From positions 3,441-67,440 of the forward strand of contig CAZMID010000004.1 of assembly GCA_964566255.1 (NCBI GenBank): a stretch of DNA of 64,000 nt, in the 5' to 3' direction. The notes under the pieces were generated by a model. The model was not told the DNA's origin. It did not search any database and saw nothing but the letters and a program-made list of their open reading frames with translations. The stretch's first letter is position 1, and the number at the start of each line of letters is the position of its first letter. Shown here piece after piece: positions 12,157-56,824 of this stretch. A program made the translations under genes and the position numbers. The stretch is from an uncultured Planctomycetia bacterium (GTDB lineage Bacteria; Omnitrophota; Gorgyraeia; Gorgyraeales; Gorgyraeaceae).

Positions 12157-12185
12157 ATTATAACAAACTACAAAATACCTGTCAA
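12157..12185 (-). promoter_or_regulatory. Sigma70-type promoter for the riboswitch/rib operon
   Basis: Minus strand reads TTGACA (12185-12180), 17-nt spacer, TATAAT (12162-12157); perfect consensus, about 15 nt upstream of the riboswitch 5' end. Confidence 0.7.
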
Positions 12186-12196
12186 TAGCTATTAAA

Positions 12197-36225: not shown

Positions 36226-37154
36226 ATATCGTGTTGTCCCCTTGAAAATAGAAACTTTCCTATAAAATTCGTATAGCTACATGGTAGACAAGTCACAAGA
36301 AATCCTAGATAAAAATACAAACAAAAGGACATTTCTTTGAGTTTAACAAAGAAATAATCCCTTGCTTTAATCTTCATACCCCTTTGTAAATATAGTATAC
36401 CCAGATCAAATTGAAATCTCTGTTTTTTCTTTTTAAGCATATTTGTCGTAATCTTATCTACAAAATTTATATTTTTGTCTATTATATTAACTGATTCCGT
36501 AAGTGCAATATCCTTTCTTCTAGAAAAACTCCCTTCATGAATCCTATATTCCGCAAGAGGTTGATTAATAAAAGTCATTGGATACCGCCTTGACATTCTA
36601 AGAAAAAAATCCCAATCTTCAACAATCTTATATTGTGGATTAAAGAGTCCTATCTCTTTGAAAATATCTTTTCTGACTACAGCCGTTATAATAGGAATGA
36701 AATTCTCTTTCAATAACTCTCTAAAAACCATTCCCCTATGTGGTCGATATATCTCAAATAGTGTGTTATTCCTTCTTCTTCCTTTTTTATCAATTATATA
36801 AGCATCGGAAAAACAAAGGTAAAGACCTCTATCTTCTTCCAATAAAGTCAATCCTACTTTAAGTCTTTCAGGAAGCCAGATGTCATCATGGTCTAAAAAG
36901 GCGATGTATTCACCTCTGGCTACTGCAATCCCCGTGTTTCTGGCAAGAGATAAGCCTTGATTCTCCTTCAGGATATAAGTCAACCGATCCTTATATTTAG
37001 AAATGACTTTACCTGTTCCATCGCAAGAACCATCGTCAACTACTATTACTTCAAAATCCTGATAGCTTTGGTTAAATACACTATCTAGGGTTTTGTCTAT
37101 AAATTGTTCTGCATTATAAGCAGGTATTATAATACTGACTTTTGGTATCTTCAT
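36222..37154 (-). CDS. Glycosyltransferase, family GT2
   Basis: 310 aa; VSIIIPAYNAEQFIDKTLDSVFNQSY, VIVVDDGSCDGT, FLDHDDIW. Confidence 0.8.
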   Translation of the reverse strand: MKIPKVSIIIPAYNAEQFIDKTLDSVFNQSYQDFEVIVVDDGSCDGTGKVISKYKDRLTYILKENQGLSLARNTGIAVARGEYIAFLDHDDIWLPERLKVGLTLLEEDRGLYLCFSDAYIIDKKGRRRNNTLFEIYRPHRGMVFRELLKENFIPIITAVVRKDIFKEIGLFNPQYKIVEDWDFFLRMSRRYPMTFINQPLAEYRIHEGSFSRRKDIALTESVNIIDKNINFVDKITTNMLKKKKQRFQFDLGILYLQRGMKIKARDYFFVKLKEMSFCLYFYLGFLVTCLPCSYTNFIGKFLFSRGQHDI

Positions 37155-38713
37155 CTTTTGCTGGTAAAAAATCCCCTCTTAATTATTGTCTTTGCTATCT
37201 TTTCATTTTTTGAAGCCTTGAAACCAATATATACATTTTGTGCCTTCTTGTGTCTAATTCTCTTTTTTATCTTTATCTTGATTTGATTAGGAACTAACGA
37301 CTTAAAAAACAACATAGGGTCCTTAAAAATACATCGGAGCTGATTCTTCTTTCGCTCTTGACTAACCAACCTAATCACATCTTCTCCCCTCCAGTCTTCT
37401 GTATCTATATTGGGATTACGAATAGATAGGTGATCGAAATCAAAATCTTTTTTAAAATATTTTCTGTCCTTACAAATATTGTAAAGTTCGGTACCTGGAT
37501 ATGGAGTAGCCATGGATATGTGCTGTGCATTACAAAGTCCTAAAGACCTGGCAAAGCGAAAGGTCTCTTTTATTTGTCCTAAAGTTTCTCCTGGCATACC
37601 AACAACCAAAAACAGAATAACTTCTATTCCTATCTTCCGAGCATGTTTAACCAAGCGTGGAATCTTCTCCAGATCTACAGGTTTTTTTATAATAGCTTCT
37701 AATACAGATTTATTTCCTGATTCAACGCCTAGACCAATCTGGTAGCACCCACTTAGTTTCATTTTATCCAGTAGAACCTCATCAAGAGTAGCAACTGCTA
37801 TTCCATTAGGAGTCCGCCATATTAAATCAAATCTTTCTCTTATAATCCCTTCAAAAATATCAAAGGCCCTTTTTCTATCCAGCAACATATTATCATCTTC
37901 AAAAAGAAGCTCTTTTATACCATAAGTATCTACCAAATACCTTATCTCATTTAATATATTTGCCGCTGACCTAGTCCTATATCTCCTACTCCAGACCTTA
38001 TGGGTAGAACAAAACGTACACTTAAAAGGGCAACCTCTTGAAGTCAATATGGATGCATGAGGGGATTTTCGATTTAGACCATGTGCCATTTTGGACCTAA
38101 AATATTTCTCCATGGGTAAAAGATGTCTTGCTGGAAAAGGAAGAGAATCTAAATCTTCTATAAATCTTTTCTTCTCGTTTATCACTGTCCTACCATTAGA
38201 ACGAAATCCTAAGCCATCTATTCTAGATACATCCCCATCCTCCTCTAAATGCTGCAACAAATCAAGGACTACTCTTTCGCCTTCACCTAGAACCACAAAA
38301 TCTACCGCATGATCATTAAAAACCATGAGAGGCTCTACAGTCGGATGCGGCCCACCCATAATAGTTATTATATTGTTGCTTATCTCCTTAGCTATTCTAC
38401 AAATCATATGTGCATTTTTGCGCTGCATTGTAAAAAGACTTGATACTCCAACTACCTGAGGAGAAAATTGTTCGATCTCTTTCCTTATATGACCAGGTGT
38501 CAGGCCCACTAATACTCTTTCATCATCAATCTCTTTTTCATTCTCCAGTCCCTCAACAAAGGCATCTAGTAATCGAACTTCATATCCACTGCGCTCCAAC
38601 ACTGCTGCAATATAAGCCAATCCTAAGGGAACATTCGGATTCATATCGCTCTTGTCCTTCAGCACAAAAGCTGGGGGCTGAATTAACATAATCCTATCTA
38701 TTTTTCTATTCAT
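37151..38713 (-). CDS. Cobalamin(B12)-binding-domain radical SAM enzyme (class B), copy B
   Basis: 520 aa; IMLIQPPAF...VPLGLAYIAAVLERSGYEVRLLD B12-binding domain, SRGCPFKCTFCSTHKVW radical SAM core. Confidence 0.8.
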   Translation of the reverse strand: MNRKIDRIMLIQPPAFVLKDKSDMNPNVPLGLAYIAAVLERSGYEVRLLDAFVEGLENEKEIDDERVLVGLTPGHIRKEIEQFSPQVVGVSSLFTMQRKNAHMICRIAKEISNNIITIMGGPHPTVEPLMVFNDHAVDFVVLGEGERVVLDLLQHLEEDGDVSRIDGLGFRSNGRTVINEKKRFIEDLDSLPFPARHLLPMEKYFRSKMAHGLNRKSPHASILTSRGCPFKCTFCSTHKVWSRRYRTRSAANILNEIRYLVDTYGIKELLFEDDNMLLDRKRAFDIFEGIIRERFDLIWRTPNGIAVATLDEVLLDKMKLSGCYQIGLGVESGNKSVLEAIIKKPVDLEKIPRLVKHARKIGIEVILFLVVGMPGETLGQIKETFRFARSLGLCNAQHISMATPYPGTELYNICKDRKYFKKDFDFDHLSIRNPNIDTEDWRGEDVIRLVSQERKKNQLRCIFKDPMLFFKSLVPNQIKIKIKKRIRHKKAQNVYIGFKASKNEKIAKTIIKRGFFTSKR

Positions 38714-38728: not shown

Positions 38729-40825
38729 TTAAAAACTGATCCTTGATCTCAAAAATTCTTCAAATGCCCCATTGATAGGGAATGTTTCCGGATTTCTATA
38801 GTAAGCATATTCTTTTGTCCTCTGCTCCAAAGCTGCAAGAGGTGGAACTAGTCGTAATATTTGTTTCGGTATTCCCGTTAGTTCAGCGTATAGACTGATC
38901 CAACTAGTTATATATTTTGTTAAATTATACCTATCCAATAAAACACAAAGAGGCAGAGTATTTTTTTTGCGCTCAGAACTTACCAATATTGGATTAAATA
39001 TAAGAGTCGCTAAGTCAAGAAAAGGTAAACACCCTTCTTGAAAATGTTCAAAATCTACTATCTTCAGTTCGTTCTTAGTGAATAAAGTGTTACAAAAATC
39101 ATAATCTCCGTGTTGGGCGCATAGTGGTATAGTAAAGTTTTTAAGCCTACATAACTCTTCCTTTAATCCACCAATAGATTTTTTTGCATCTTCTGTTAAT
39201 AGGCTATGCTTTTCTAATATTTTTTTCTGATCCTCTAAAAATGATATCAGATATGGTGTTGACTCGACCTGTGTCTTTATCGTATGTTTCTGAAAGCTCG
39301 CAAGAAACCTGATCGCCATCTTAATTTCTCGATCGAGATATTCTAATTTTGTCTTTAAACGATCGTTAAAAGTGAATACTGAATTTTTAGCTTCGACAAA
39401 CTCTGTCACCATAAAGGTAACATCATCTATGGTGCCATAGTATAACAATTTTGGGATATTTGAAACTAACCTTGTATCTTTGAGCAAAAAATCAACTCTT
39501 TTTAAATTTTTCGATTCAGCATCCAAAATGTCAATAGATTCTCTATTGCGACAAACTTTGCAAAAATATCTTGGCCTATTTTTATTGTCACTATAAACCC
39601 AATAATTGACTGTAAGGTCATTTCCTGGGCGACTGTCACATTTTACAATCTTTACGTTGGAAGATTCATTAGTTATTAAGCCTGCTAGCCTCAATAATTT
39701 AATCAACCTCGGCTCATTATTTGCTATAGAAGAGCCTTTGACAGCAATAGCAATTATACTCGGCGACAACCATTTCAATAAACCCTTTGGAAGAAACCTT
39801 AATAGGATTCTATTCAAGATTCCTTTTGTAGATGATATCTCTTTTTTTAAATTCTTGATCAAATCCAAAGGGATCACTTCTGATGGTGTTATATAATGCA
39901 TAAAAGCTCCATAAAAATCAATATTCCTAAATCCACTTTCTTTCAGTAATGACCTATATCCCGGTATACCATGGACATGAGTTCTGTATTCACGTTTCAG
40001 AATCAATTTTGTAAGTAGATTAGCTATGGATCTCGGCATAAATGATATAAATGGAATATTCATGTGATCATCGGGATAGCCTGCTAAATATATGTATCCA
40101 ATTCTATTCTCAATCGCCAAGTAGATACACCCTCCTGGCTTAATAACTCGCCTTATTTCCCGTAAAACTCGGAGCTGGATTGTCTTTGGATCTTCAGAAT
40201 ATCTCAGAGCTTTTTCAGCTCGAAGTCCGCGTCCAAATTTCTTCCAATGTCTTTCTAAAACAACTTCTTCTTCAAGAGCAACCCATTCTAGAACCCCACT
40301 CAGAACAACTAAATCAAAAAAATCATCAGCAAAAGGTAATTTCTCAAGCCCGGAGGCTACAGTATGGATATTAGAAAAACCCATTTGTTGCGCACGGATT
40401 CTCAGAAATTCAAGGGTTTCTACTGTCTTATCAACGGCATAAACTTCACTATGAAATTGGGCTGCCGGGACTGCGATACCACCCCACATACTACCAGCAT
40501 CTAAAATTTTTGAATCTTTTGTGCAAGGCCATAAAAATTGGGAATCTGCCCTATTAAAAGATACAAAATGGTCCATATACTGAGGTACTGTCTTTTTAGC
40601 TGTTCCAAGCCAATCACCGCTAATATCAGCAAGCCTATTTAGTTCTTGCATCTTTTCCCGACTGACATTACACCAATATCCAGCTCTATCTCTAAAATCA
40701 GGTGTGTCATTAATAACAGGGTAATCTTTTCTGCACGATGAACAGATCAATTTATTATGATCGTGACTCAAAAAAGAATGGCACTTTGGACAAACTAAAT
40801 CGTCAAAAATACGGATATTCTTCAT
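38729..40825 (-). CDS. Tri-domain fusion: N-terminal Trm112-like zinc ribbon + class I SAM methyltransferase + C-terminal aminoglycoside/choline-kinase-like (APH-fold) phosphotransferase
   Basis: 698 aa; CPKCHS...CSSCRKDYPV; MTase motif I ILDAGSMWGGIAVPAA and LVVLSGVLEWV; C-terminal HGDYDFCN (HGDxxxxN catalytic loop) and IVDFEHF (DFG-equivalent). Confidence 0.65.
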   Translation of the reverse strand: MKNIRIFDDLVCPKCHSFLSHDHNKLICSSCRKDYPVINDTPDFRDRAGYWCNVSREKMQELNRLADISGDWLGTAKKTVPQYMDHFVSFNRADSQFLWPCTKDSKILDAGSMWGGIAVPAAQFHSEVYAVDKTVETLEFLRIRAQQMGFSNIHTVASGLEKLPFADDFFDLVVLSGVLEWVALEEEVVLERHWKKFGRGLRAEKALRYSEDPKTIQLRVLREIRRVIKPGGCIYLAIENRIGYIYLAGYPDDHMNIPFISFMPRSIANLLTKLILKREYRTHVHGIPGYRSLLKESGFRNIDFYGAFMHYITPSEVIPLDLIKNLKKEISSTKGILNRILLRFLPKGLLKWLSPSIIAIAVKGSSIANNEPRLIKLLRLAGLITNESSNVKIVKCDSRPGNDLTVNYWVYSDNKNRPRYFCKVCRNRESIDILDAESKNLKRVDFLLKDTRLVSNIPKLLYYGTIDDVTFMVTEFVEAKNSVFTFNDRLKTKLEYLDREIKMAIRFLASFQKHTIKTQVESTPYLISFLEDQKKILEKHSLLTEDAKKSIGGLKEELCRLKNFTIPLCAQHGDYDFCNTLFTKNELKIVDFEHFQEGCLPFLDLATLIFNPILVSSERKKNTLPLCVLLDRYNLTKYITSWISLYAELTGIPKQILRLVPPLAALEQRTKEYAYYRNPETFPINGAFEEFLRSRISF

Positions 40826-41676
40826 ATAGACAAATCTCTTATTTTATCTTCCACTTTCTTCTCTGCCCAACCCCCCTTTGCCACAATATAGAAAGAGGCA
40901 GAGAAGAGCAAAAAATGCCTTGCTACAAATCCCAAAAACACAACCCATGTGATAAAAATACTTGTGAAGATTTCCAGTAAAAGCAAAAGACATACAAAAT
41001 CGACAGTCTTAGCGTGATCATCCAAGAAATTCTTGATTAGATTATAAAATATACTCTTTTTCTTATTAGCAATCCTATGGGTTTTCTCACTTTTAGTCCT
41101 ATATTCTTTTAGTTCTTCTGATTTAAGGCAGCTCTGAAAAAGAATTTTATAGCCAAACGAGATCAGGTTAGCTGCATAAAACAATGGGATTAATAATGTT
41201 AAATAATAAAATAGCATCATTCCAGATTTTTGAGCCACATAAAGGCCCAGTCCTACCTGAAAACCCAATGTCCCCAGTAAAGCCCCATAAGGATCTAGCA
41301 CGACTCCAGTAATAGAAGTCTGGTTTTTTATTCTTGCAAGATGTCCATCACTCCAATCTAATATTGCTTTTAAGAAAAATATAAAAATTGCAATAAAAAC
41401 CGTCTTGTTTGTAGAGATCGCTAACAAAATGCCCCCAGCTAAGCCCAATAGACCATAAATAATTGATAAGGTATTAGGTTTAATTCTTGTCTTTAACAAA
41501 AAATATACTAATACAGCACTTGATTCCATATACAACCTTGCTTTTAAAAAGGTATAAGGATTTTTTTTCCAGTTGTTAATATATGGGCAATCACTAATCT
41601 TATCCTTATATTGTTCTAATCTAAGCTGCCTGAGTGTTATGTTTTTATTGGTCATATTTACGAACCCTTTCAACAT
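40822..41676 (-). CDS. CDP-alcohol phosphatidyltransferase-family membrane enzyme
   Basis: 284 aa; DWSDGHLARIKNQTSITGVVLDPYGALLG matches D-G-x2-A-R-x8-G-x3-D-x3-D; about 6 TM helices. Confidence 0.8.
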   Translation of the reverse strand: MLKGFVNMTNKNITLRQLRLEQYKDKISDCPYINNWKKNPYTFLKARLYMESSAVLVYFLLKTRIKPNTLSIIYGLLGLAGGILLAISTNKTVFIAIFIFFLKAILDWSDGHLARIKNQTSITGVVLDPYGALLGTLGFQVGLGLYVAQKSGMMLFYYLTLLIPLFYAANLISFGYKILFQSCLKSEELKEYRTKSEKTHRIANKKKSIFYNLIKNFLDDHAKTVDFVCLLLLLEIFTSIFITWVVFLGFVARHFLLFSASFYIVAKGGWAEKKVEDKIRDLSI

Positions 41677-42352
41677 CTCCTATGAAATCAATCTCTACCC
41701 ATTTTAAGCCATTAATGTCCTCAAAACTAAAATCCACTTTCTTAAAAAGATCTGGCAATATATCCTCATAGCCAATATCAAGATTGCCCTTTTCTATATT
41801 ATTTTCTACAATCCTTCGCAGGATATTTGTTGTCGTCTTTTCCATCTTTAAAAAACCAACCCACTCACCCATTAGGTCAAAATCTCCCTTTAGGCCTCTT
41901 TCTATAGTACAGACTCTTCCTTTCTTTATACCTGCTATACATTCCTCTCCAGCATTTGGAGAAACAGTATCAATAACAATAGAATTAACTCCCTTTGCTT
42001 CCATCAATCTTCTTAATATCTCCTTTTCAAAAAAGACATCTCCATCCATTAAAAGAATAGTATCATCCAATTCCTCCCTTGCCGTCCATAAAGAAAGAAT
42101 ACTACCCCTGGAATAATCAGAATTCGCTATCACTCTAATGCTACCCTTAAAAGGAATAGTCTGAATCTTTTGTTCTACCAAATCTTTCCTATATCCTGTT
42201 ACAACAACTACATCTTCTATGCCAAGCTCCTCAAAATGCTCTAAATATCTTTCAATAAGAGTCTTGTTTCTCGTTTCAATTAAACATTTTGGCTTATCAG
42301 TATAATCTCTTATCCTATTCCCTATCCCTGCAGCTAAAATTATAGCCTTCAT
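41645..42352 (-). CDS. Nucleotidyltransferase (LicC/PntC-like cytidylyltransferase for phosphocholine/AEP-type substrates)
   Basis: 235 aa; MKAIILAAGIGNRI (GxGxR NTP-transferase P-loop), KCLIE; sits between the transaminase and the CDP-alcohol transferase. Confidence 0.65.
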   Translation of the reverse strand: MKAIILAAGIGNRIRDYTDKPKCLIETRNKTLIERYLEHFEELGIEDVVVVTGYRKDLVEQKIQTIPFKGSIRVIANSDYSRGSILSLWTAREELDDTILLMDGDVFFEKEILRRLMEAKGVNSIVIDTVSPNAGEECIAGIKKGRVCTIERGLKGDFDLMGEWVGFLKMEKTTTNILRRIVENNIEKGNLDIGYEDILPDLFKKVDFSFEDINGLKWVEIDFIGDVERVRKYDQ

Positions 42353-43434
42353 AAGTTCTTTCTTTTCTTCTCTAGGATAGATTTCAATACTTCAAGAAAA
42401 CCTTTAATGTCGTCTTCTGAAATAAGGCCGACTGTCCCAATGCGAAAAGTCTTATCGCTCAATCCCTTTACAGGAACATATATCTCATACCCCATTCTTC
42501 TGCATTCCTGATAAAGATATTCATAAGTAATCCCATCGGGCAGAAAAACAGTCGTCATTGTATTAGAGAATAAACCTTCCTTTAAATATAACTTTAAACC
42601 CAGATTTAGCAAACCATCTCTCAAAAGCCTCGTTATCTTTGCATAATGCCTTATCCTTTTATCCATACCCTCTTCTATTAGTTCTCTTAACGCTTCCCTT
42701 AATGCATAGAATGTCTGAACAGCTGGAGTAAAAGGTGTCTGACCTTTTCTCTCATAATCAAGGTGTCTAATTAAACTAAGGTAATATCCTTTTTCTGTAC
42801 CTTTTGAACATAATTGAATAAATTTATTCGATGCCAATACAAAAGAAAGACCAGCTGTTCCCCTTATACATTTATTTGCACTTCCTATTATAAAATCAAT
42901 ACCCCAATCTTTAAGGTTAAGTTCCTCACCAGCAATACTAGATATTGCATCTACCATAACCAAAGAACCTTTTTCTTTAGCAAGTCTTGCTAAATCCTTC
43001 AAAGGATTAAGCATCCCTGTGCCTGTTTCATGATGGACAAGATAAGTTATTGCTGGTTTTACTTTACCCATTGCCTCTGAGGCTATATTTAAATCAATTG
43101 CACCAGAGTCTGGAAAATTCACTCTATGCACATCTAATCCATTTAATAATGATATTTCATATGTCCTCTCGCTATACGCTCCGTTAGAAACTACCAGAAT
43201 AGGTTCAAGTGTATTTTTTAATGATAATAAAGAAGCCTCTATAGCTGCTGTTCCAGAACCTGTAAATATCACTGGACTATAACCTTCTGAGCCAGGACAT
43301 ATCTTAAGCAATAGATTGCGTGTTTCTTCAAGTAGCGCTTTAAAATCAAGACCTCTATGGTTTATGTCAGGTCCTAATAGGGCACGCCTTACATTTTCAG
43401 AGATATTAGCCGGGCCAGGTGAAAAGATTATCAT
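42349..43434 (-). CDS. Class V aminotransferase, 2-aminoethylphosphonate:pyruvate transaminase (PhnW/AepZ)-like
   Basis: 361 aa; N-terminus IIFSPGPANIS (cf. LLTPGPLTTS), HHETGTGMLNPL, VDAISSIAGE, SANKCIRG (Lys). Confidence 0.7.
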   Translation of the reverse strand: MIIFSPGPANISENVRRALLGPDINHRGLDFKALLEETRNLLLKICPGSEGYSPVIFTGSGTAAIEASLLSLKNTLEPILVVSNGAYSERTYEISLLNGLDVHRVNFPDSGAIDLNIASEAMGKVKPAITYLVHHETGTGMLNPLKDLARLAKEKGSLVMVDAISSIAGEELNLKDWGIDFIIGSANKCIRGTAGLSFVLASNKFIQLCSKGTEKGYYLSLIRHLDYERKGQTPFTPAVQTFYALREALRELIEEGMDKRIRHYAKITRLLRDGLLNLGLKLYLKEGLFSNTMTTVFLPDGITYEYLYQECRRMGYEIYVPVKGLSDKTFRIGTVGLISEDDIKGFLEVLKSILEKKRKNL

Positions 43435-44939
43435 AATAGACCTTCCCTCTTTAAATATATCTTTGTTAGTCGATTAAAAGCTTGATTACCTTCTTTATCG
43501 AATTTCTCGCATCTTTTAATTTCAGGCCACATTTCCTTTGGAAATCTAACATACATCGCGAATGTCCTTTGTAAGCCTCGGATCTGCTTTTGTCCCAGAT
43601 GCGGCATCTTTATTATAGCCTCGGATCTATAGTCGCCAGCCAAGGCATCTCTATCTAAATAGCCCTTTTCTATAGCAAGCTCTCTTAATTTTGTTCCTCT
43701 ATATGGGTTAAATATATTCACGATGATATTGTCTGCATCTATATTCCTGTTTAACTCAATAGTATCAAAAATAAGCCTCCTTGTTTCCGTAGGAAATCCT
43801 ATAACATTATTCGCGCAAGCCCTTATCTTTGTCTTTTTTGCTATACAAAATGCCTTTATAATAGAACGGTTAGTTACCTTCCTATTAAGCACTCTGTTCC
43901 TAAATTTATAACTTCCATGATCAACACCAATGCTCATCCCTTCACATCCAATCTTCCCCAATTTTAAAATCCTTTCTTCTGTTACAGCCTCTGGCCTTGT
44001 TTCTATCCAAAACGGTAATCCTATATTTTTATATCCCTCTATAAATTCATTGAATCTATCACTATCCATTAAAAGGAAATTTTCAGCTACTATATATAAA
44101 TATTGCAGGCCGTATTGTTTTTTCTTCGATCGTATCTCTTTCATCAAGGTATCTATCTTTCTATACCTATAATAATGACCGTGATGTTTGTATATATCCT
44201 GAAGACTCTTGTTGCAACAAAATGCACAATTATAAGGACATCCTCGATTCATCTCAAAAGAGCCAGCGATATAAACCTTGCCGCCCATTGGCTTATAGAA
44301 ACGTTCTTTTTCGTATATACTCCAATCGGGTTCCGGCAGCTTATTAAGATCTACCAAAGGTCTAACTGGATTCTTGTATATCTTGCGTCCTTTTTTTACC
44401 CATAAGTTTGCAACATGCGTATAGTCTTTTCTATCCTTGATCCTATCTGCTAACTCTACTATAGCGCCTTCTCCTTCTCCGATACATACCATGTCAACTG
44501 CCTTTTCGCGAATAACCTCTTGGGCTGAGAATGTAACATGGATGCCACCTATTATTGTCGGAATCCTTAAATCTCTTATTGCATTTAACAATCTTAACCC
44601 AATCAAATATGTTATTTCTACAACCGAGACTGCTACTAGGTCTGGCTTGAATTCATTAATCAATTTTCTAAAATCGCTGACCATATCAGTCTGTTTAGGA
44701 CGAATACCAAAATCTGCCAGATTGGTATATCTTACCTGCAATGTCTTCACCCTGGCATCATCTCCTGTTTCTTCCCGGGTTTTATAAAAAGTAGTATCGA
44801 ATAACTTGACTTCATGACCAGCCTGCTTAAGACAAGCTGACAATATAGATACGCCCAAAGGAATCAGATTATCCATGAAGCTATTAGCCAAAACCAACAA
44901 CACTCTTATCCGTTTCTTTTTGCTTCCATGGCTATTCAT
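43431..44939 (-). CDS. Cobalamin(B12)-binding-domain radical SAM enzyme (class B), copy C
   Basis: 502 aa; RVLLVLANSF...PLGVSILSACLKQAGHEVKLFD, NRGCPYNCAFCCNKSL. Confidence 0.8.
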   Translation of the reverse strand: MNSHGSKKKRIRVLLVLANSFMDNLIPLGVSILSACLKQAGHEVKLFDTTFYKTREETGDDARVKTLQVRYTNLADFGIRPKQTDMVSDFRKLINEFKPDLVAVSVVEITYLIGLRLLNAIRDLRIPTIIGGIHVTFSAQEVIREKAVDMVCIGEGEGAIVELADRIKDRKDYTHVANLWVKKGRKIYKNPVRPLVDLNKLPEPDWSIYEKERFYKPMGGKVYIAGSFEMNRGCPYNCAFCCNKSLQDIYKHHGHYYRYRKIDTLMKEIRSKKKQYGLQYLYIVAENFLLMDSDRFNEFIEGYKNIGLPFWIETRPEAVTEERILKLGKIGCEGMSIGVDHGSYKFRNRVLNRKVTNRSIIKAFCIAKKTKIRACANNVIGFPTETRRLIFDTIELNRNIDADNIIVNIFNPYRGTKLRELAIEKGYLDRDALAGDYRSEAIIKMPHLGQKQIRGLQRTFAMYVRFPKEMWPEIKRCEKFDKEGNQAFNRLTKIYLKREGLL

Positions 44940-45493
44940 GCAATAACTCCTTTTATACGTCGAGTCAATGCCTCTGGCATAAGAGAAATTCTGGCAGCAT
45001 CTTTTAAACTCTCTGATTCGACTTTTAAGAGTAAAAAAGAAGGACCAGTCTCTTCTATGACATGCGAAAATATCCTAGTCAACTCATTCTCTTTATCGAT
45101 TTTATACACATGATCATATCCTGCCCCACTAGCAATACGTGAAAGATCGATGTCCTTTGAAATGCTTGGTTGATTGCCTGTCGATTGATAAGACTCATTA
45201 TCCAAAACAATATGTATGAGATTTTTTGGTTTAAATGAAGCTGTCATAGCCATGCTCCCCATGTCCATCAAAATACTACCGTCTCCATCGAATATTACTA
45301 CTTTCTTATTAGTATTCAACGCAATCCCTAGACCTACTGCTGAAACAAGACCCATAGATCCAAGCATATAAAAATTGGCCTCTCTATCTTTGGCGCAAAA
45401 AGCATCTCTACTAATCATGCCAGTAGTAAAAAGCGCTACATCCTCATCCTTTAATAAATCCAGTATTACCGTTATAGCGTCGAATCTCTTCAT
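44936..45493 (-). CDS. Phosphonopyruvate (or sulfopyruvate-type) decarboxylase, beta subunit (TPP-binding PP domain)
   Basis: 185 aa; TPP motif GSMGLVSAVGLGIALN...VVIFDGDGSILM...N; follows a PYR-domain ORF and a PEP mutase. Confidence 0.7.
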   Translation of the reverse strand: MKRFDAITVILDLLKDEDVALFTTGMISRDAFCAKDREANFYMLGSMGLVSAVGLGIALNTNKKVVIFDGDGSILMDMGSMAMTASFKPKNLIHIVLDNESYQSTGNQPSISKDIDLSRIASGAGYDHVYKIDKENELTRIFSHVIEETGPSFLLLKVESESLKDAARISLMPEALTRRIKGVIA

Positions 45494-45978
45494 CCTACCA
45501 TTCCTTTCTTCAGGATAATAGCAACAGGCCTGGAGCTCTTATTCATTTCTTCAACTGCCCAATCAATATCCTTTGTAAAATCTTCAGTCAATATTAGAGT
45601 CGGGATACCTAATTCCTTAAGTAAAGGTAACATCTTCTTCCCCATAATAATATGCTCGGGCTCGTCTTGCTGCTGATACCCCCGCCAGGTAATAAACATT
45701 AATACAGGAACCTTGTAAATAAGGTTAAAGGATGTAAGGGCATTAATAATGTTTCCCAGGCCTGAATTTTGAATTAATATACCACTTTTCCTGCCTGCTA
45801 GATAAGCGCCGCTAGCTATACCTAAAGCCGCATTTTCTCTAACTGCCGGGATATAGTCTATATCAGAATCACTTAACGAACCCTTTAATATCTCTTTTAA
45901 GATAGAACAAGGGACTCCGGAAAAAAAAGTAAACCCTTTCTTTTTTAAATGGTCCCAAAAATTATAATACGAAATCAT
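45490..45978 (-). CDS. Phosphonopyruvate decarboxylase, alpha subunit (TPP PYR domain)
   Basis: 162 aa; FFSGVPCSILKEI, ENAALGIASGAYLAG: TPP pyrimidine-binding domain as in split ComD/ComE-type and Ppd enzymes. Confidence 0.7.
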   Translation of the reverse strand: MISYYNFWDHLKKKGFTFFSGVPCSILKEILKGSLSDSDIDYIPAVRENAALGIASGAYLAGRKSGILIQNSGLGNIINALTSFNLIYKVPVLMFITWRGYQQQDEPEHIIMGKKMLPLLKELGIPTLILTEDFTKDIDWAVEEMNKSSRPVAIILKKGMVG

Positions 45979-45990
45979 ATTATTTCTGCC

Positions 45991-47649
45991 TCATTTAATA
46001 AGCGAACAAGCCAATTTGTAATCCTCAAACGAATGGATTTCCAACCATCCTGAATTAATCTCTATCCCGTTTACTTTATGTCCACAGTTTATGATTTCCT
46101 GGATTAGATCTGACAAGTTTGCTTTTTCAAAAATAGGGGCACTGTGGAACGGTTTCCCTCGATAATCATGAGCTGATCTAGAATATATATCCTTGAAGAT
46201 CTCTGTCCCTCTTGAAGACAAGAGCATTAATCCAGGAAATTCATAGTGAGCTTTCTTAAGTTCAATATCCAAACCTATCTTCTTTATCTCTTTTGTAGAG
46301 CTACCCCTAAGTCTTCTTCTTGTATTAATAGGTTTTGAATCTGATATAACCAGATCTACTCTTTTCTTAGGTCCATAATTTTTCGAATCAAAGGTAGAAT
46401 CTAGAAGAATAGTAATATCTTCCTTACTCTGTAAAAGTTGATCTAAGATAAAATAGTCAAAAAGTATATCTGAGTAAGCAATAAAGGTCTTTCCTGTCAT
46501 ATATTCACTAGCACGCATTACAGAATTTAATATTCCTGTTGTCTTATAATCAGGATTACTGATAAGCTTGATACCATCCATATCTATCTTTTCCTTTTTA
46601 TACCCCCCGATTACGCAAATTTCTGATATCCCTGCTTTATTAAAGACCTCTAACTGCCTCTTTAATAAAGGTCTACCATTTATGTCTAACATAGCTATAG
46701 GAATTTCACTAGAAACATCTTTCATAGAATACTCTTCTATATGGTCTCCTGCTGCAGGAATAAATGCTGCTACCTTTTCTTTTTCCGCTCGCAAATAAAC
46801 TCTTTCTGCCTTTTTCATCTGTGGCATACCTTGAAGCTCAAACACCTGCTTCATAGAAGTGATTTTTTCCTCTACACTACCCACTGTTCCTGTCCGTTTA
46901 ATCTCATCAAACACCCCCTCCATAGCCCTGATAGCTGCCCTTATTCCCTGATTTGCATAGATCACCATCTTCACGCCAATGTCTTCTAATTCTTTGGAGG
47001 TAACTTTACAGTAAGTAGTAGGAACAACTATTAAAGGAACTCTATTTTGCCATCTCCTAGCAAAATCAAATATCTCATTGGGCTCACTTGATTTAGAATG
47101 AATCAGTATAGCATCTGCTCCTGCATCTATATAGGTATGGGCTCGTTTTAGAGCCTCTTCCATGCCCCAACCTGCAATTAGCGCTTCTACTCGAGCTATA
47201 ACCATAAAATCCTGGTTTTCCTGTGCATTCTTAGCAGCCATAATTTTCCCTACAAACTCAGGTATAGAAGCAAGCTCTTGCCTGCCAGGGATATAGCTAT
47301 TTACTTTTGGAAACTGTTTATCTTCAATACACACTCCAGCTATACCCGCTGTCTCATACTTTTTAACCATATGAACCACGTTATTTGAGTTTCCATATCC
47401 TGTATCGCAATCAGCAATAACTGGGATTGAAACAGCATCGTTCATTTCACAAGCCCTTTCTAAATATTGTGACATCGTAAGGATATTGGCGTCTGGGACA
47501 GCATAAGAAGTAGATATCTCTAAGCTACTCGCCCATATTCCATCAAATCCATTCCGCTCTACTAATTTTGCACTCAAGCCATCATGTGCACCTACTATTT
47601 CTATTAAACCTCGTCTGTTAAAAAGGCTTCTTAGTTTTGTTGTTTTCAT
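45991..47649 (-). CDS. Fusion: N-terminal phosphoenolpyruvate phosphomutase (Ppm) + C-terminal nucleotidyl(cytidylyl)transferase domain
   Basis: 552 aa; LRSLFNRRGLIEIVGAHDGLSAKLVERNGFDGIWASS, IPVIADCDTGYG, CIEDKQFPK (PEP mutase/ICL superfamily motifs), then FIPAAGDHIEEY...IAMLDINGRPLL...ICVIGGYK NTP-transferase fold. Confidence 0.8.
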   Translation of the reverse strand: MKTTKLRSLFNRRGLIEIVGAHDGLSAKLVERNGFDGIWASSLEISTSYAVPDANILTMSQYLERACEMNDAVSIPVIADCDTGYGNSNNVVHMVKKYETAGIAGVCIEDKQFPKVNSYIPGRQELASIPEFVGKIMAAKNAQENQDFMVIARVEALIAGWGMEEALKRAHTYIDAGADAILIHSKSSEPNEIFDFARRWQNRVPLIVVPTTYCKVTSKELEDIGVKMVIYANQGIRAAIRAMEGVFDEIKRTGTVGSVEEKITSMKQVFELQGMPQMKKAERVYLRAEKEKVAAFIPAAGDHIEEYSMKDVSSEIPIAMLDINGRPLLKRQLEVFNKAGISEICVIGGYKKEKIDMDGIKLISNPDYKTTGILNSVMRASEYMTGKTFIAYSDILFDYFILDQLLQSKEDITILLDSTFDSKNYGPKKRVDLVISDSKPINTRRRLRGSSTKEIKKIGLDIELKKAHYEFPGLMLLSSRGTEIFKDIYSRSAHDYRGKPFHSAPIFEKANLSDLIQEIINCGHKVNGIEINSGWLEIHSFEDYKLACSLIK

Positions 47650-49132
47650 TTTGATCTCCTTTGACTTTCCTAATAATTCTATTCATTAAGCTAATAGGCT
47701 TCTGGTTTAAAAAAATATTAATTTTTACCTTTATAGAATCACTTAGTTTCTGAAACTGTAATTTTAACTTCAGCATGGCCAATATCATTTTCCTCTTCTT
47801 ATACCATGCATATTTAATGTCTCTAGATAATGCCTCTATCCTTTTCTGCAGAGTCTTATTGCTAAGACTGGAGTAATTTATAACCAAACGAGATGCATTT
47901 TCAAGCCTTACCATATACTCATCAACATTTTGAATTATCCCTTTTGACAAAGCATATTCAAAAAGTGTTGACCCGGGATAAGCTGTAGCATAGAAAGTAC
48001 CTATCGTCTTAACGTCTTCTCCGATTAAAAATTCCTTTGTTTCTTCAATTGTTTCAATTGTCTCTGATGGCATCCCAAATACCATTGTAGGACTAGCATA
48101 AATACCAACTTCATTACACCATCTAATAGCCTTTCTATTCTCTTCTACAGTAATCTGCTTATTCATTTCCCTTAGGATAGTTGGGCTACCGCTTTCAATT
48201 CCAACATCTATCTCGTAACAATGGGTATCTTTTAAAATCCTCAAAAGCTCTCTATCTAAACTATTAGCACGTGCATTTATCCGATATGGTATATCCAAAC
48301 CGCTTGCTTTGTATTTTGCGCAAAAATCTATCACCCAATCACGATGCATAGTCATTAATTCATCTGCTATGCAAAATAAATCAGGAGAATATTTTCTACT
48401 TACAATAACCATATGCTCAATAAATCTATCTACGGAATGCTGCACAAAATGCTGTCCAAAATTCCTAGAACAGAAGAAACAATTGTAAGGACATCCTCTA
48501 CTGGAAAATAATACAAACTCAAAAATCTTTTTGCGTTTATCCTTCTGTCTAATATAGTCCCATTGTGTACTACTGGGGTTGATAAAATTGCGATAATAAT
48601 CAATATCTATCAAATCATATGGCGGAATCATAACCTCAAAATCCATGTCTTTCACATGAAGACCTGGCTTGATGACAACCTTTTCATCTCTGCGATATCC
48701 AATCCCATCAAGGTCATCTAAAGCCTTATGGTGTAGAAGGCGTTCTGTCAACTCAGAAACTATAGGTTCACAATCACTGGTAACTATGACATCTACATCA
48801 ATGAATTTTAAGAAAGTTTCTGGCATTGTCGAGGCAACAGATCCACCTGCCATAATTGGGATAGAATCTCCGTATTTCCGGCGGAATAGCGGGACAAATT
48901 CCTTCCAAAAATAGTAAGATGTGGAAATTCCTGTAATACCAAGTATATCAAAATCCAACGCAGCTATATCCTGAAAAGTTTCATAAGGAGTATGTTTTTT
49001 TATGTGAGAATCAACTATTTGTATCTTGTGTCCATTTGCTTTAAGTACGGCGGCAACTGCTAAAAGGCCATGGGGTATTTCGTTCATTGGCCGACTGCGA
49101 TATGTTGGACCCAACAGTAATATATTCGCCAT
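47618..49132 (-). CDS. Cobalamin(B12)-binding-domain radical SAM enzyme (class B), copy D
   Basis: 504 aa; ILLLGPTY...PHGLLAVAAVLKANGHKIQIVD, SRGCPYNCFFCSRNF. Confidence 0.8.
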   Translation of the reverse strand: MANILLLGPTYRSRPMNEIPHGLLAVAAVLKANGHKIQIVDSHIKKHTPYETFQDIAALDFDILGITGISTSYYFWKEFVPLFRRKYGDSIPIMAGGSVASTMPETFLKFIDVDVIVTSDCEPIVSELTERLLHHKALDDLDGIGYRRDEKVVIKPGLHVKDMDFEVMIPPYDLIDIDYYRNFINPSSTQWDYIRQKDKRKKIFEFVLFSSRGCPYNCFFCSRNFGQHFVQHSVDRFIEHMVIVSRKYSPDLFCIADELMTMHRDWVIDFCAKYKASGLDIPYRINARANSLDRELLRILKDTHCYEIDVGIESGSPTILREMNKQITVEENRKAIRWCNEVGIYASPTMVFGMPSETIETIEETKEFLIGEDVKTIGTFYATAYPGSTLFEYALSKGIIQNVDEYMVRLENASRLVINYSSLSNKTLQKRIEALSRDIKYAWYKKRKMILAMLKLKLQFQKLSDSIKVKINIFLNQKPISLMNRIIRKVKGDQNENNKTKKPF

Positions 49133-49144: not shown

Positions 49145-50650
49145 CTAAAACCTCAATAGGGCGAGTCTTTTAATAATGCGTCTATTATCAGGAGATAATA
49201 AGTTATACCCAACTACTTGAGTTATTCCGTAAATAAACGCCATTATCGTAATAATCTGAAATACATTTATACCCTTCATGAATCTTTGTGCTATAAAAGA
49301 TAAAAAGAAACATAAGAAAAAATGTGGTACATTCGGCACAACAGCCTTACGAAGAAAGTCCAGAACAGAAATCGATAGAATCCTACAATAACGAAATACA
49401 TAAAAATTTGATGCTAAAATCCATGGAATAGCTGTACCCCATGCTACTCCTGTAATACCTATAAATCTTATAAGTAAAAGGCTCAAGCCTAAATTGGCCA
49501 CTGCTACAAAACCATTGATCCTTACGGGCTCAATAATCTTGCCCTTGCCTCCGACTACAGCCTGACTTAATATTGCTATCATGATATTAAAAAACCAATA
49601 ACTTAAAAGAATCTTACAGGGTAATATAGAACCTGAAAACCTTACACCGACCCACGCTAAAATAAAGTCATCCACGCTTATCAATGCAATGATAACAATA
49701 GGGATTAATATGCCTGAATGAATCCTCGTCGCATTAATCACCATAGCGTCTCTATTGTTTTTATTCTGCTTGGCAAATTCTGCTACTATAACAGGATATA
49801 ATGGGCTGCCGAGTAAGGCATTAAGCCTTCTTATATAAGTATGAATGATAAAAGCAATAGAATATACTGCAACAGCATTAACACCTAAAATAGCCCCGAT
49901 TATAAGGTTGTCAATCTGATATATAATAAGCCCAAAAATACTGGCGACAAAATACCATCCGCTAAATTTAATAAGTTTATCCCTTAAAGACCTTGGAATA
50001 GGTCTTAATCTGAAACGAAAGTTAGGTATGAGCTTTATTGCAACGACGATGTTCACACAAGAAACTACAACAGTAATAAACTGCAATAGGGCTATGTAAA
50101 ATAAATATGATCCTGAATATGTCAATACTATCAGGGCAAGCGGAATGTTAAAAATTGAAATGACCAGGCTGACCTTACTTATAATATCCATCCGTTGAAA
50201 TCCTTTGAGTACCCCCTGAAATGGAATAACAACCCATACAAACATAGATGAAACTGCATATATTAATAATAAAATCCGACCCTTCACAACTAATTCTGCC
50301 TCTATATGGAATAACCTCTCATAAAAAAAGGACAGGGCAAATAAGGAAATAGCCACTAAAATTCCCAAAACTACAAAAAACTTAATACCGAAATGTAAGA
50401 TATCTGATACTCGATCCTGTTTTCCTTCGCCAAAAAATACTGCAGTAAATCGCGATATCCCTGAAGCCAATCCAAAATCCAATATATTAAAATAACCAAC
50501 AATAGATAATATCAAAACATTCAACCCATATAATCCTAAATCAACATGTCTCAGGATAAAGGGTATCAGAAAAAAACTAGTCAAAACCAAAATGAACTGG
50601 GAATAAGCCGAAAACTGTAAATTGCGACCTAATCTATCTACTACTGACAT
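49145..50650 (-). CDS. Polysaccharide biosynthesis membrane protein, Wzx-like flippase (MOP superfamily)
   Basis: 501 aa, about 12-14 TM helices, Wzx-like N-terminus (RLGRNLQFSAYSQFILVLTSFFLIPFILRHV...GLYG...ILDFGLASGISRF). Confidence 0.6.
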   Translation of the reverse strand: MSVVDRLGRNLQFSAYSQFILVLTSFFLIPFILRHVDLGLYGLNVLILSIVGYFNILDFGLASGISRFTAVFFGEGKQDRVSDILHFGIKFFVVLGILVAISLFALSFFYERLFHIEAELVVKGRILLLIYAVSSMFVWVVIPFQGVLKGFQRMDIISKVSLVISIFNIPLALIVLTYSGSYLFYIALLQFITVVVSCVNIVVAIKLIPNFRFRLRPIPRSLRDKLIKFSGWYFVASIFGLIIYQIDNLIIGAILGVNAVAVYSIAFIIHTYIRRLNALLGSPLYPVIVAEFAKQNKNNRDAMVINATRIHSGILIPIVIIALISVDDFILAWVGVRFSGSILPCKILLSYWFFNIMIAILSQAVVGGKGKIIEPVRINGFVAVANLGLSLLLIRFIGITGVAWGTAIPWILASNFYVFRYCRILSISVLDFLRKAVVPNVPHFFLCFFLSFIAQRFMKGINVFQIITIMAFIYGITQVVGYNLLSPDNRRIIKRLALLRF

Positions 50651-52496
50651 TTATTTCTCCTTGCACAAAACGTTCATATTCAGTATAAGAAAATTGTCTT
50701 ACATAGGTATCAATAAATCCACGGGCCCTTACATCTACCCCTTCTAATGATTCTGTTTTTAAAAAATCTGCTAATTGCGACTTAAGCTCATCTATAGTTT
50801 GAGAATAAACTACCCTCTCCTTAAGGAGAATAAGGGCATCTTCCCCTATTGACCATGATTCCTGATTAACCATCAGAAAAACTGGTCCAACATACTGTTT
50901 AAGGACCTGCAAGAGTACAGTTGATGGATTATCAAGGATAACGAAATCATAATTACTAACTAAGGCCTTATTTATTAAAATATCGCTATACGAAACCGAA
51001 CCATAGCCTTTCTCTTTTATATATCTACTCAGTTCAAGATGCGCTTGATGACCTTTTAATCCCTTAACTACTAGTTCTGTCTCGGTATTAGAGCCAAAAA
51101 AATCGATTATTTGTCTAGTTGCCTCGAACTGCAACACACTATTCCACTTAACCCGACCTTGACTATAAAAATTACCAATTACAGCTGGTATAAAAAGTCC
51201 CTTCTTTGAAGTGGGTAAGCTATTTACCTCAGAACCATCTCGAACTAGCTTCCTGTTAAACATATTTGACCCAACCTGAACACAAACAAAAGAACTATCT
51301 TCTTTAGATCCCGCTATACCATTGGAATCGTTCCTTCCAAAAGATAAAAAATAGTCAGCGGCCTTATAATCCGAAACATGCTGCAGAAAATGACTGCTAT
51401 ATCCATAAAACCCGCCATGCTGCCATACCGCTATTTTTCCATTAGCTTCTTTTGTCTTTTTAATAAGAAAATATGAGCTTAAGTGGACAGGGGCTAAACT
51501 GAAAATCATCAAATATTGCTTCTGACTATCCAAACAGGTATGCCAAAATAAATCCACATAATCTTGCATCCACATTGTATCATTTAAATATTGGACAATA
51601 GTATTATGAAACCTTTCGGCAAAATCAAATTCAAAGTCAAAGAATTTGCAGCGATAAGGCTTGGTTACCGACGTAGTGCAATCAGAACTACTCTTCTTAA
51701 GAAAACTCCTAGTAATCAGAAAGCGGAATAATTTACTCCATGAATGTAGATATGGCATTCGCCCGCCATGAAAAACCTGAGGAAATAAACTGCGAGAAGA
51801 ATAGACCCTATTATAATTAATTTTATTATCGTATCCGGGCCTAACCAAAATACAATCATGGTCTTTTCTGTTAAATGATAACACCTTCCAATAAATAAAT
51901 TTTAACGTATGCAAAAAAGGATTTAAATCAGATCTCTGATTATAAAAAATCGTCCTGGGTTTCTTTCGAAGGTCTCCACGATTCAGGCATCTGGTCTTTA
52001 CGCCTTTACTTTCAAAAAAATCTCTAACTAAACTACTAAATGAAGCCATTTCGAGCAATAGACCACCTTCATTCAACACCCTGTTTCTCTGTATCAAAAT
52101 AACTTCTTCCACTGGGCATTGATTTAACAAATCATTGCAAAATGAAATGATTCTATGGGTTGCGACCCAAATAGATAGCCAAAAATATTCCAGTGGAAAA
52201 GAACCCTCTGATGCATTATCGACAACCTTATTATTCAAACATAGCTCTTTTAAGAATTTTTGAGATTCCCCATAAAGTCTTTGCGTAAGAATAGAGCAAT
52301 CAACCTTTTCGCTTATGCGAGGAAGAAAATAATTTTTTTCAACTTCCTGCCACATAAGCTGCATCATAGGCAAAAAAGTAATAGGAAACCAGCAAAATTC
52401 CTTTGGAAGCACCTCTTTATAGAGTCCCTTAAAAGCTACAAAATCATTCTCATCAATTAAAATACAGGCTGTTTTATAATTAGATTTTTCTTTCAT
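50634..52496 (-). CDS. Hypothetical protein (620 aa), possible distant TagF-like CDP-/CMP-dependent phosphotransferase
   Basis: No strong motif; VWQHGGFYGYSSHF faintly resembles the WHG block of glycerophosphotransferases; soluble. Confidence 0.3.
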   Translation of the reverse strand: MKEKSNYKTACILIDENDFVAFKGLYKEVLPKEFCWFPITFLPMMQLMWQEVEKNYFLPRISEKVDCSILTQRLYGESQKFLKELCLNNKVVDNASEGSFPLEYFWLSIWVATHRIISFCNDLLNQCPVEEVILIQRNRVLNEGGLLLEMASFSSLVRDFFESKGVKTRCLNRGDLRKKPRTIFYNQRSDLNPFLHTLKFIYWKVLSFNRKDHDCILVRPGYDNKINYNRVYSSRSLFPQVFHGGRMPYLHSWSKLFRFLITRSFLKKSSSDCTTSVTKPYRCKFFDFEFDFAERFHNTIVQYLNDTMWMQDYVDLFWHTCLDSQKQYLMIFSLAPVHLSSYFLIKKTKEANGKIAVWQHGGFYGYSSHFLQHVSDYKAADYFLSFGRNDSNGIAGSKEDSSFVCVQVGSNMFNRKLVRDGSEVNSLPTSKKGLFIPAVIGNFYSQGRVKWNSVLQFEATRQIIDFFGSNTETELVVKGLKGHQAHLELSRYIKEKGYGSVSYSDILINKALVSNYDFVILDNPSTVLLQVLKQYVGPVFLMVNQESWSIGEDALILLKERVVYSQTIDELKSQLADFLKTESLEGVDVRARGFIDTYVRQFSYTEYERFVQGEINVSSR

Positions 52497-53392: not shown

Positions 53393-53406
53393 AATATAAA
53401 TAAATC

Positions 53407-54057: not shown

Positions 54058-54116
54058 ATAAACTTCCTATTTTATCTGATTCGATATAAATGTTGTAGAC
54101 ACAAAAATAGACATAT

Positions 54117-56823: not shown

Positions 56824-56824
56824 T

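Follow-up and report, generated by a model that had tools for sequence, protein, structure and literature searches.

An aminoethylphosphonate module in an Omnitrophota surface-glycan locus and its association with a clade of cobalamin-dependent radical SAM proteins predicted to tailor phosphonate head groups

The synthesis of 2-aminoethylphosphonate (AEP) and its activation for transfer to cell-surface acceptors follow a published logic. CMP-AEP is made by PntC, a cytidylyltransferase analogous to LicC; approximately 60% of Ppm proteins (phosphoenolpyruvate (PEP) phosphomutases) are fused to a nucleotidyltransferase, 33% of all Ppm to PF12804, which is the commonest Ppm fusion, and the clusters often have a second, separate PntC (Rice 2019, PMC6697681). 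In a large cluster family, the core consists of Ppm-PntC, phosphonopyruvate decarboxylase (Ppd), AEP transaminase (AEPT), a second PntC and a CDP-alcohol (CDP-OH) phosphotransferase (Li & Horsman 2022, PMC8942020). The early fosfomycin pathway comprises Fom1 (cytidylyltransferase-Ppm), Fom2 (Ppd), FomC (an iron-dependent alcohol dehydrogenase, Fe-ADH) and Fom3, a cobalamin (B12)-dependent radical S-adenosylmethionine (rSAM) C-methyltransferase which methylates CMP-hydroxyethylphosphonate (CMP-HEP) at C2. Here we analyzed a stretch of 64,000 nucleotides from an uncultured Omnitrophota bacterium (contig CAZMID010000004.1, assembly GCA_964566255.1), referred to below as the window, that encodes an AEP module. 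The reading that we favor, and consider fairly probable, is that of a Pnt-type module that lies within a surface-glycan locus of the Wzx/Wzy type, more than 50 kb long, and is equipped with a predicted branch of C-methylation by rSAM enzymes.

The new element in the window is a conserved, putative radical SAM tailoring step on an ordinary AEP module, for which a chemistry can be proposed by analogy. We attribute this step to the gene named here rSAM C, which lies between the Ppd and AEPT genes and encodes a class B rSAM protein with B12-binding (PF02310) and Radical_SAM (PF04055) domains and a CPYNCAFC motif. The AlphaFold2 model of the protein (predicted local distance difference test score, pLDDT, 94.6) matched the folds of TsrM, AprD4, MgmA, OxsB, CysS and TokK about equally. 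Judged from this model, the class (cobalamin-dependent rSAM) is secure, whereas the specific chemistry is not discriminated by the fold. When homologues at 59-81% identity were collected by sequence search alone, all retrieved contexts were phosphonate clusters, namely loci L006 (Omnitrophota), L007, L008 (Nanoarchaeota), L090 and L091. A 52% orthologue was also found inside a phosphonate cluster in L092, a locus retrieved via the orthologue of another rSAM of the window (rSAM D, see below). Across Omnitrophota, Nanoarchaeota and further lineages, orthologues 51-81% identical to rSAM C adjoin genes for Ppm, Ppd, AEPT, PntC or the CDP-OH transferase; the contexts in L006, L007, L008, L091 and L092 contain Ppm-nucleotidyltransferase/Ppd/AEPT/PntC/CDP-OH genes.

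A metagenome scan seeded solely with rSAM C homologues gave 80 loci, and 86 rSAM C-like open reading frames (ORFs) clustered into two clades near the window protein and a sister clade. Phosphonate genes were visible in 26 of the 40 loci of the two near clades as compared to 1 of the 46 loci of the sister clade (Fisher p=7e-11). Most of the phosphonate-negative loci in the near clades are contigs of 1.5-3 kb. Gene order varies in the phosphonate clades, yet rSAM C stays within ~100 bp of AEPT, Ppd or Ppm. In L024, a single ORF of 1066 residues (9956-13153) unites the rSAM C orthologue with Aminotran_5 and Methyltransf_11 domains. In two other loci (L015 and L032), the orthologue occurs with Ppm, Ppd, PntC and an Fe-ADH that replaces AEPT (HEP-type), a gene set which is that of Fom1/Fom2/FomC/Fom3 without the epoxidase. 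Further fusions were noticed in related loci: AEPT with NTP_transf_3 in L025 (7139-8968, 610 residues, in the reverse order of Tde1415) and a methyltransferase with AEPT in L090 (356-2014, 552 residues).

Because of this context, the clade statistics, the fusion and the Fe-ADH loci, there is strong evidence at the sequence level that the phosphonate head group would be the target of rSAM C, and that this protein tolerates or tracks the amino as well as the hydroxy branch. A Fom3-like role is suggested by analogy and solely by the genomic context, in which Ppm, Ppd, either Fe-ADH or AEPT, and PntC occur together with rSAM C. A literature search found nothing on a B12-rSAM acting on AEP or on a C-methylated AEP head group, and a 2022 survey of ppm neighbourhoods names radical SAM genes for a Campylobacter family only (Li & Horsman 2022, PMC8942020). 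The fact that rSAM C travels with AEP genes across distant microbes suggests an undescribed methylated phosphonate.

The sister clade of rSAM C (L036-L084, 46-50% identity) is nearly never found by phosphonate genes. Its conserved partner is an AP_endonuc_2 TIM-barrel gene, which overlaps the rSAM start in ~30 loci. Some sister-clade loci add an APH-like kinase and LPG_synthase_TM, others a 3-hydroxyisobutyrate-dehydrogenase-like gene. An analogy with phosphoethanolamine was considered for this clade and found to be unsupported, the partner being AP_endonuc_2 and the APH-like kinase being present in some loci only. We also considered a PhpK-like P-methylation by rSAM C or rSAM D. A phosphonate has no P-H bond of the kind methylated by PhpK-type enzymes. 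Moreover, the scores against the PhpK/Sden_1168 models TIGR04479 and NF038361 (66.6 and 56.4 bits for rSAM C, 61.1 and 114.7 bits for rSAM D) are far under the respective cut-offs of 600 and 575, and this activity was rejected.

The genes of the module and its immediate neighbours are the following:
47618-49132, minus strand: B12-rSAM D (B12-binding + Radical_SAM, CPYNCFFC)
45991-47649, minus strand: Ppm fused to NTP_transf_3 (PF13714 + PF12804, TIGR02320)
45490-45978, minus strand: Ppd PYR subunit, N-terminal thiamine pyrophosphate (TPP) domain (PF02776, TIGR03297 positions 1-155)
44936-45493, minus strand: Ppd PP subunit, C-terminal TPP domain (PF02775, TIGR03297 positions 171-355)
43431-44939, minus strand: B12-rSAM C, predicted C-methyltransferase (B12-binding + Radical_SAM, CPYNCAFC)
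42349-43434, minus strand: AEPT, PhnW-AepZ type (PF00266, Aminotran_5; TIGR03301)
41645-42352, minus strand: stand-alone LicC/PntC-like cytidylyltransferase (PF12804, NTP_transf_3)
40822-41676, minus strand: membrane CDP-alcohol phosphotransferase-family enzyme, predicted CMP-phosphonate:acceptor transferase (PF01066)
38729-40825, minus strand: methyltransferase-kinase fusion, cassette membership uncertain (Methyltransf_11; weak APH and Fructosamin_kin)
37151-38713, minus strand: class B rSAM, recurrent partner type of rSAM C (B12-binding + Radical_SAM, CPFKCTFC)

The first eight ORFs had been described in a sequence-only reading of the window as a complete AEP cassette. Their coordinates and domains were found to be as described, all eight being on the minus strand, and Pfam and NCBIfam searches returned PEP_mutase, TPP_enzyme_N/C, Aminotran_5, NTP transferase and CDP-OH_P_transf. 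The Ppm part (residues ~1-285) matches PF13714 (PEP_mutase) at 1.1e-60 and scores 337.2 bits against TIGR02320, above the cut-off of 319.55, whereas its scores against the PPH model (297.1, cut-off 374.4) and against PrpB (186.5, cut-off 354.4) are both under. It carries EDKQFPKVNS, which conforms to the EDKXXXXXNS catalytic motif that distinguishes Ppm from the rest of the isocitrate-lyase superfamily (Rice 2019, PMC6697681). In the PDB, its top solved relative is the PEP mutase 5unc (7e-106), methylisocitrate lyases following at ~1e-31. The motif, the TIGR02320 score and the PDB ranking rule out an isocitrate or methylisocitrate lyase paralogue, the one identity that the sequence-only reading had named as fatal to its proposal.

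The C-terminal domain of the Ppm protein (residues ~290-552) is a MobA/LicC-like NTP_transf_3 domain (PF12804, 9.9e-8). This two-domain architecture is present in nearly all of the best 120 listed among more than 7000 homologues. It had been compared to that of Fom1 as the same two domains in opposite order; this comparison did not hold, the cytidylyltransferase of Fom1 being a PF01467 (CTP_transf_like) domain at the N-terminus (Rice 2019, PMC6697681). Within the fused domain (45991-46860), the segment AAGDHIEEYSMKDVSSEIPIAML departs from the canonical GxGxR...PK signature (R15 and K25 in Tde1415): the Arg and the Lys of PK are missing. In its place stands AAGDHLxExSMKxIxxDIPxxMLDINGKPLLQRQ, a stretch that at least 90% of the ~118 fused domains share (the window's own and 117 homologues). 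By contrast, the stand-alone PntC (PF12804, 3.5e-15) keeps GIGNRIR...KPK, and its segment AAGIGNRIRDYTDKPK lines up with the LicC and Tde1415 signature. Its top solved relatives are LicC (1jyk, 8e-16) and the PntC domain of Tde1415 (6pd1, 1.2e-11), the alignment to 6pd1 spanning residues 2-227, that is the full-length PntC domain. These matches fit a LicC/PntC-like cytidylyltransferase with AEP as predicted substrate. Because the canonical residues are there and not in the fused domain, the formation of the CMP conjugate is better assigned to the stand-alone PntC, which on sequence grounds is the safer candidate. A literature search found no biochemical study of a Ppm-fused PF12804 domain. The presence of such a domain without the canonical signature beside a canonical PntC raises the question of the role of the commonest Ppm fusion partner.

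Ppd is encoded by two genes instead of the canonical single chain. The PYR subunit matches positions 1-155 of the Ppd model TIGR03297 with 140.6 bits and the PP subunit positions 171-355 with 179.9 bits, the cut-off of 312.5 being that for a single-chain Ppd. The corresponding scores against the models of the sulfopyruvate decarboxylase subunits ComD (TIGR03845) and ComE (TIGR03846) are 131.8 and 169.3 bits, under the cut-offs of 147.95 and 221.5. The pair thus fits the Ppd model better than ComDE, it adjoins Ppm, and the same split recurs in the Ppm clusters L004, L006 and L091. AEPT scores 300.8 against the PhnW-AepZ model TIGR03301, below its cut-off of 360.8; this is nevertheless the best NCBIfam family by more than 70 bits, and the top solved relatives are the AEP-pyruvate transaminases 9kk8 and 1m32 (2.5e-48). 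Although strict membership by cut-off fails, the genomic context supports the predicted AEPT function. The CDP-OH transferase matches PF01066 (CDP-OH_P_transf) with 44.7 bits (cut-off 22) and has several hydrophobic segments. Together, these genes are consistent with the previously proposed route from PEP through phosphonopyruvate (PnPy), phosphonoacetaldehyde (PnAA), AEP and CMP-AEP to transfer. The complete AEP biosynthesis and activation cassette is real but ordinary, because its core is published, homologues of the Ppm-nucleotidyltransferase fusion are numerous and the split Ppd is recurrent.

The functional unit extends downstream of the CDP-OH gene (40822), to at least 37151. The class B rSAM gene at 37151-38713, which the sequence-only reading had left outside its coordinates, represents the rSAM type that recurs beside rSAM C orthologues: those neighbours are closest to it (34-47% identity), with bit scores 1.5-2.3 times those for any other paralogue. 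Genes of this type adjoin rSAM C orthologues in L006, L007, L008, L015, L017, L018, L090 and L092, and share a cluster with them in L032 and L091. L091 is wholly syntenic with the window: it encodes Ppm-nucleotidyltransferase, PpdA, PpdB, rSAM C, AEPT, two 37151-type rSAMs, PntC and the CDP-OH transferase, and continues with a 700-residue methyltransferase-kinase protein and another 37151-type rSAM. The type is missing from L093 and L094, two syntenic glycan scaffolds that are free of phosphonate genes.

The ORF between this rSAM and the CDP-OH gene (38729-40825) encodes a 698-residue fusion of a Trm112-like zinc ribbon, a class I methyltransferase (Methyltransf_11, 4.7e-14) and a choline/ethanolamine-kinase-like domain, the latter with weak APH and Fructosamin_kin matches and the motifs HGDYDFCN and IVDFE. 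A PDB search with this protein was uninformative. Full-length orthologues come after the CDP-OH transferase in L091 (51%) and, in L093 (50%) and L094, two loci free of Ppm, after Wzx. A small methyltransferase family that adjoins or is fused to AEPT or rSAM C in other loci is missing from the window. The methyltransferase-kinase fusion, which also occurs without Ppm, is the sole adjacent candidate for N-methylation. The suggestion that an rSAM might yield an N-methylated product was abandoned, this chemistry being unnecessary when class I methyltransferases are the recurrent neighbours; N-methylation, if any, would be the job of such a methyltransferase, with no radical SAM needed.

The evidence for rSAM D is of another kind. 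It is also a class B rSAM (PF02310 + PF04055, CPYNCFFC), and its orthologue group is small, with 16 proteins at 49-72% identity and the next at 33%. These orthologues adjoin Wzx and LIC12162-like genes in L092, L093 and L094, and two of these three loci (L093 and L094) have no Ppm within 10 kb. There, a scaffold syntenic with the window comprises a methyltransferase, CTP_transf_3, NeuB, a formyl- or acetyltransferase, AP_endonuc_2 and rSAM D, followed by a 616-624-residue LIC12162-like protein, Wzx, the methyltransferase-kinase fusion and a GT2 glycosyltransferase. In L092, the rSAM D orthologue is located by Wzx and 621-residue genes, and a phosphonate module follows that has C-type and 37151-type rSAMs of its own. 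No rSAM D orthologue was present in the 88 other retrieved loci that are not copies of the window. From this synteny, rSAM D and the methyltransferase-kinase fusion are assigned to the scaffold and not to the phosphonate module. Because L093 and L094 are syntenic without Ppm, it looks as though the AEP module has been inserted into a conserved nonulosonic-acid/Wzx scaffold, with rSAM D on one side and the methyltransferase-kinase gene on the other. Hence, of the idea that class B rSAMs tailor the phosphonate, the part concerning rSAM C gained support from the clade counts and the L024 fusion, and that concerning rSAM D did not, since the latter is linked to the scaffold.

Several genes of this scaffold were noted in the window. 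The ORF at 50634-52496 encodes a 620-residue protein with no Pfam match at E<=0.001. In L093 (33% identity, with PF27859 LIC12162 in the L093 protein) and L094 (30%), its orthologues are situated between the rSAM D counterpart and Wzx, and the 621-residue gene of L092 occupies the same neighbourhood. A nonulosonic-acid-type module at 52508-57676, syntenic with L093 and L094, contains a methyltransferase, CTP_transf_3, NeuB+SAF, a formyltransferase, a PglD-like acetyltransferase and an AP_endonuc_2 TIM barrel. A second formyltransferase at 27286-28218 suggests N-formylated sugars.

The window is bacterial, as indicated by an NAD-dependent DNA ligase, XerC and a riboflavin operon at 1-12 kb. Its GC content is ~35% and all sizeable ORFs are on the minus strand. 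From 12197 to the window end, a single unbroken surface-glycan locus (~52 kb) encodes GT2 and GT4 glycosyltransferases, DegT aminotransferases, two formyltransferases, NeuB and a CMP-sugar synthetase, Glf, AsnB, a Wzx flippase, an EpsG/Wzy-like protein and a WecA-like priming transferase. From Wzx to the GT2 gene at 36222, ORFs overlap by 4 or 32 nt or are separated by 12-15 nt, and given these short gaps and overlaps the genes are read as one operon without internal boundary. Six B12-rSAM genes are found in the glycan locus (21272-22774, 37151-38713, 43431-44939, 47618-49132, 60340-61716 and 61746-63137); all six products have CxxxCxxC, and their pairwise identity is just 22-32%. With an additional SPASM rSAM at 20178-21275, the density is unusually high for a single glycan locus. 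Since there are six class B rSAMs in the window, the pair flanking the C-P genes is by itself uninformative and not a special one; the recurrent partner of rSAM C is the type at 37151-38713. Each rSAM was assessed instead by the comparative gene context of its orthologues. The comparative loci came from contig look-ups and one metagenome scan; a scan of genome contigs for Ppm-nucleotidyltransferase fusions gave one locus.

The module resembles the Pnt pathway and the 'Burkholderiales_CDP-OH' family in its Ppm-PF12804 fusion, Ppd, AEPT, second PntC, CDP-OH transferase and activation as CMP-AEP. Unlike them, it lacks an alpha-ketoglutarate oxygenase and encodes Ppd in two separate genes. One class B rSAM stands between Ppd and AEPT and another two genes after the transferase, the whole is inside a Wzx/Wzy glycan locus, and the transferase is without the fourth signature Asp. 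With the early fosfomycin pathway it shares Ppm, Ppd, cytidylyl activation and a cobalamin-type rSAM, and in L015 and L032 Fe-ADH takes the place of AEPT. However, in the window the fused PF12804 domain is C-terminal, the route leads to an amino and not a hydroxy compound, no homologue of the FomD hydrolase or the HppE epoxidase is found among the annotated genes, and the predicted fate of the CMP conjugate is use by the transferase, not hydrolysis. The likeness to the Lic (LicA/LicC/LicD) and Kennedy pathways lies in a LicC-like cytidylyltransferase (cf. 1jyk) that would activate a small zwitterionic head group for transfer to an acceptor, and in a choline-kinase-like domain encoded next to the cassette. 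In contrast to these systems, the head group would be made de novo with its C-P bond, so that no kinase step is involved, and the transferase is of the CDP-OH_P_transf type and not LicD.

The following pathway can be proposed. Ppm would convert PEP to PnPy, and the two-subunit Ppd would draw the reaction onward to PnAA, from which AEPT would form AEP. The stand-alone PntC would then convert AEP to CMP-AEP. rSAM C most likely methylates an sp3 carbon of a 2-substituted ethylphosphonate; its most probable substrate is the CMP conjugate, as for Fom3 on CMP-HEP, which would place the methylation after activation. The rSAM at 37151-38713 probably adds another methylation. Finally, the membrane CDP-OH-family transferase would move the phosphonyl head group, a putative C-methylated aminoalkylphosphonate, to a lipid-linked glycan or a lipid. 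If this transferase uses the CMP conjugate directly, as predicted, no FomD-like hydrolase would be needed.

Several observations weigh against this pathway. Methylases cannot be told apart from class B enzymes of other chemistry by fold or sequence: the dehydratase AprD4 and OxsB match rSAM C equally well in structure. About a third of the loci in the two phosphonate-linked clades have no visible phosphonate gene, and in L017, whose 10-kb flanks are complete, the rSAM pair and a CDP-OH transferase are found with no Ppm. The loci showing the 37151-type partner were picked via rSAM C or Ppm, and the specificity of this pairing is therefore not independent. As the window has six class B rSAMs, part of the co-location could reflect an abundance of rSAM genes in the glycan loci of these lineages. 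In the CDP-OH transferase, the signature reads D107xxD110GxxAR115-x7-G123xxxD127xxxA131, the fourth Asp being replaced by Ala. The closest homologues, in L032 and L091, also have Ala here; among other phosphonate-linked homologues the residue is His, Ser or Gly. The predicted acceptor is a lipid-linked glycan or a lipid, and given Ala131 it may differ from those of the family.

The abundance of rSAM genes leads to a different view, in which the decoration is plain AEP and the interleaved class B rSAMs act on the glycan, by C-methylation or deoxygenation of sugars as do GenK, GenD1 and AprD4, the rSAM-rich locus explaining their co-location. The six B12-rSAMs and the SPASM rSAM are indeed set among glycosyltransferases over 52 kb, rSAM D is demonstrably tied to the scaffold and not to phosphonate, the sugar diol dehydratase AprD4 tops the PDB sequence matches for both rSAM C and rSAM D, and in L001-L004 the AEP core has no accompanying rSAM. 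We nevertheless regard this explanation as improbable, as the rSAM C linkage is clade-specific, survives the shuffling of gene order and persists across phyla in which the surrounding glycan genes differ, and an rSAM-AEPT-methyltransferase fusion protein exists (L024). Far less probable still is a reading in which the two TPP subunits form a sulfopyruvate decarboxylase (ComDE) and a sulfonate is the product of the cassette. The two-gene layout is as in ComDE and both subunits do match the ComD and ComE models; these scores are under their cut-offs while the Ppd model scores higher on both halves, the TPP genes come straight after a bona fide Ppm, and other Ppm clusters (L004, L006 and L091) contain the same split. 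This candidate was rejected on the model scores.

The nature of the acceptor allows a further alternative, namely that the product is a phosphonolipid and not a phosphonoglycan. In this case, the CDP-alcohol phosphotransferase would take AEP or methyl-AEP from its CMP conjugate and pass it to a lipid alcohol such as diacylglycerol, following the Kennedy pathway and the predicted phosphonolipid clusters of the 'Burkholderiales_CDP-OH' family. The nearest NCBIfam matches of the transferase are archaetidylinositol-phosphate, cardiolipin, PgsA and PIP synthases, and phosphonolipids are the predicted products of the published cluster family that shares the core of the module (Li & Horsman 2022, PMC8942020). 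In addition, the known phosphonoglycan and phosphocholine systems use LicD-type transferases (Rice 2019, PMC6697681), and L037 has an rSAM C orthologue with LicD-like genes instead. Nonetheless, the transferase scores far under the cut-offs of all these lipid synthases, the missing fourth Asp is compatible with a different acceptor, and the gene belongs to the Wzx/Wzy glycan operon, where it shares overlapping reading frames. We judge the phosphonolipid alternative rather unlikely.

On a wider scale, the rSAM C clade tracks C-P biosynthesis genes across bacterial and archaeal phyla and is once fused to AEPT, which makes it a candidate for a new class of cell-surface phosphonate head groups and gives Fom3-like chemistry a non-antibiotic setting. 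We tentatively propose, as a possibility somewhat short of even, that, in Omnitrophota, Nanoarchaeota and other uncultured anaerobes, this clade and its 37151-type partner form a widespread branch of phosphonate tailoring that is Fom3-like and C-methylates CMP-AEP or CMP-HEP. If this were true, surface glycans or lipids would bear head groups unreported in nature, such as 2-aminopropylphosphonate or 2-hydroxypropylphosphonate. Fom3-type chemistry would then not be confined to antibiotic pathways, and fosfomycin biosynthesis may have borrowed from cell-surface tailoring.

Two additional gene sets were observed in the comparative loci. By the Ppm-nucleotidyltransferase clusters of L003 (4750-15357) and L002 (19749-21662) lie genes for a PPDK_N/PEP-utilizer kinase, a Peptidase_C26 amidase, an NTP transferase, an APS-kinase-like protein and methyltransferases, a set which we take to resemble the Campylobacter O-methyl phosphoramidate pathway and which hints at a combined phosphoramidate and phosphonate decoration. 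In L007 (13018-15904), a fusion of CTP_transf_like with a citrate-synthase-like domain and an HD-domain gene, located by the AEP/rSAM cluster, recall phosphonomethylmalate chemistry of the FrbC/FrbH type.

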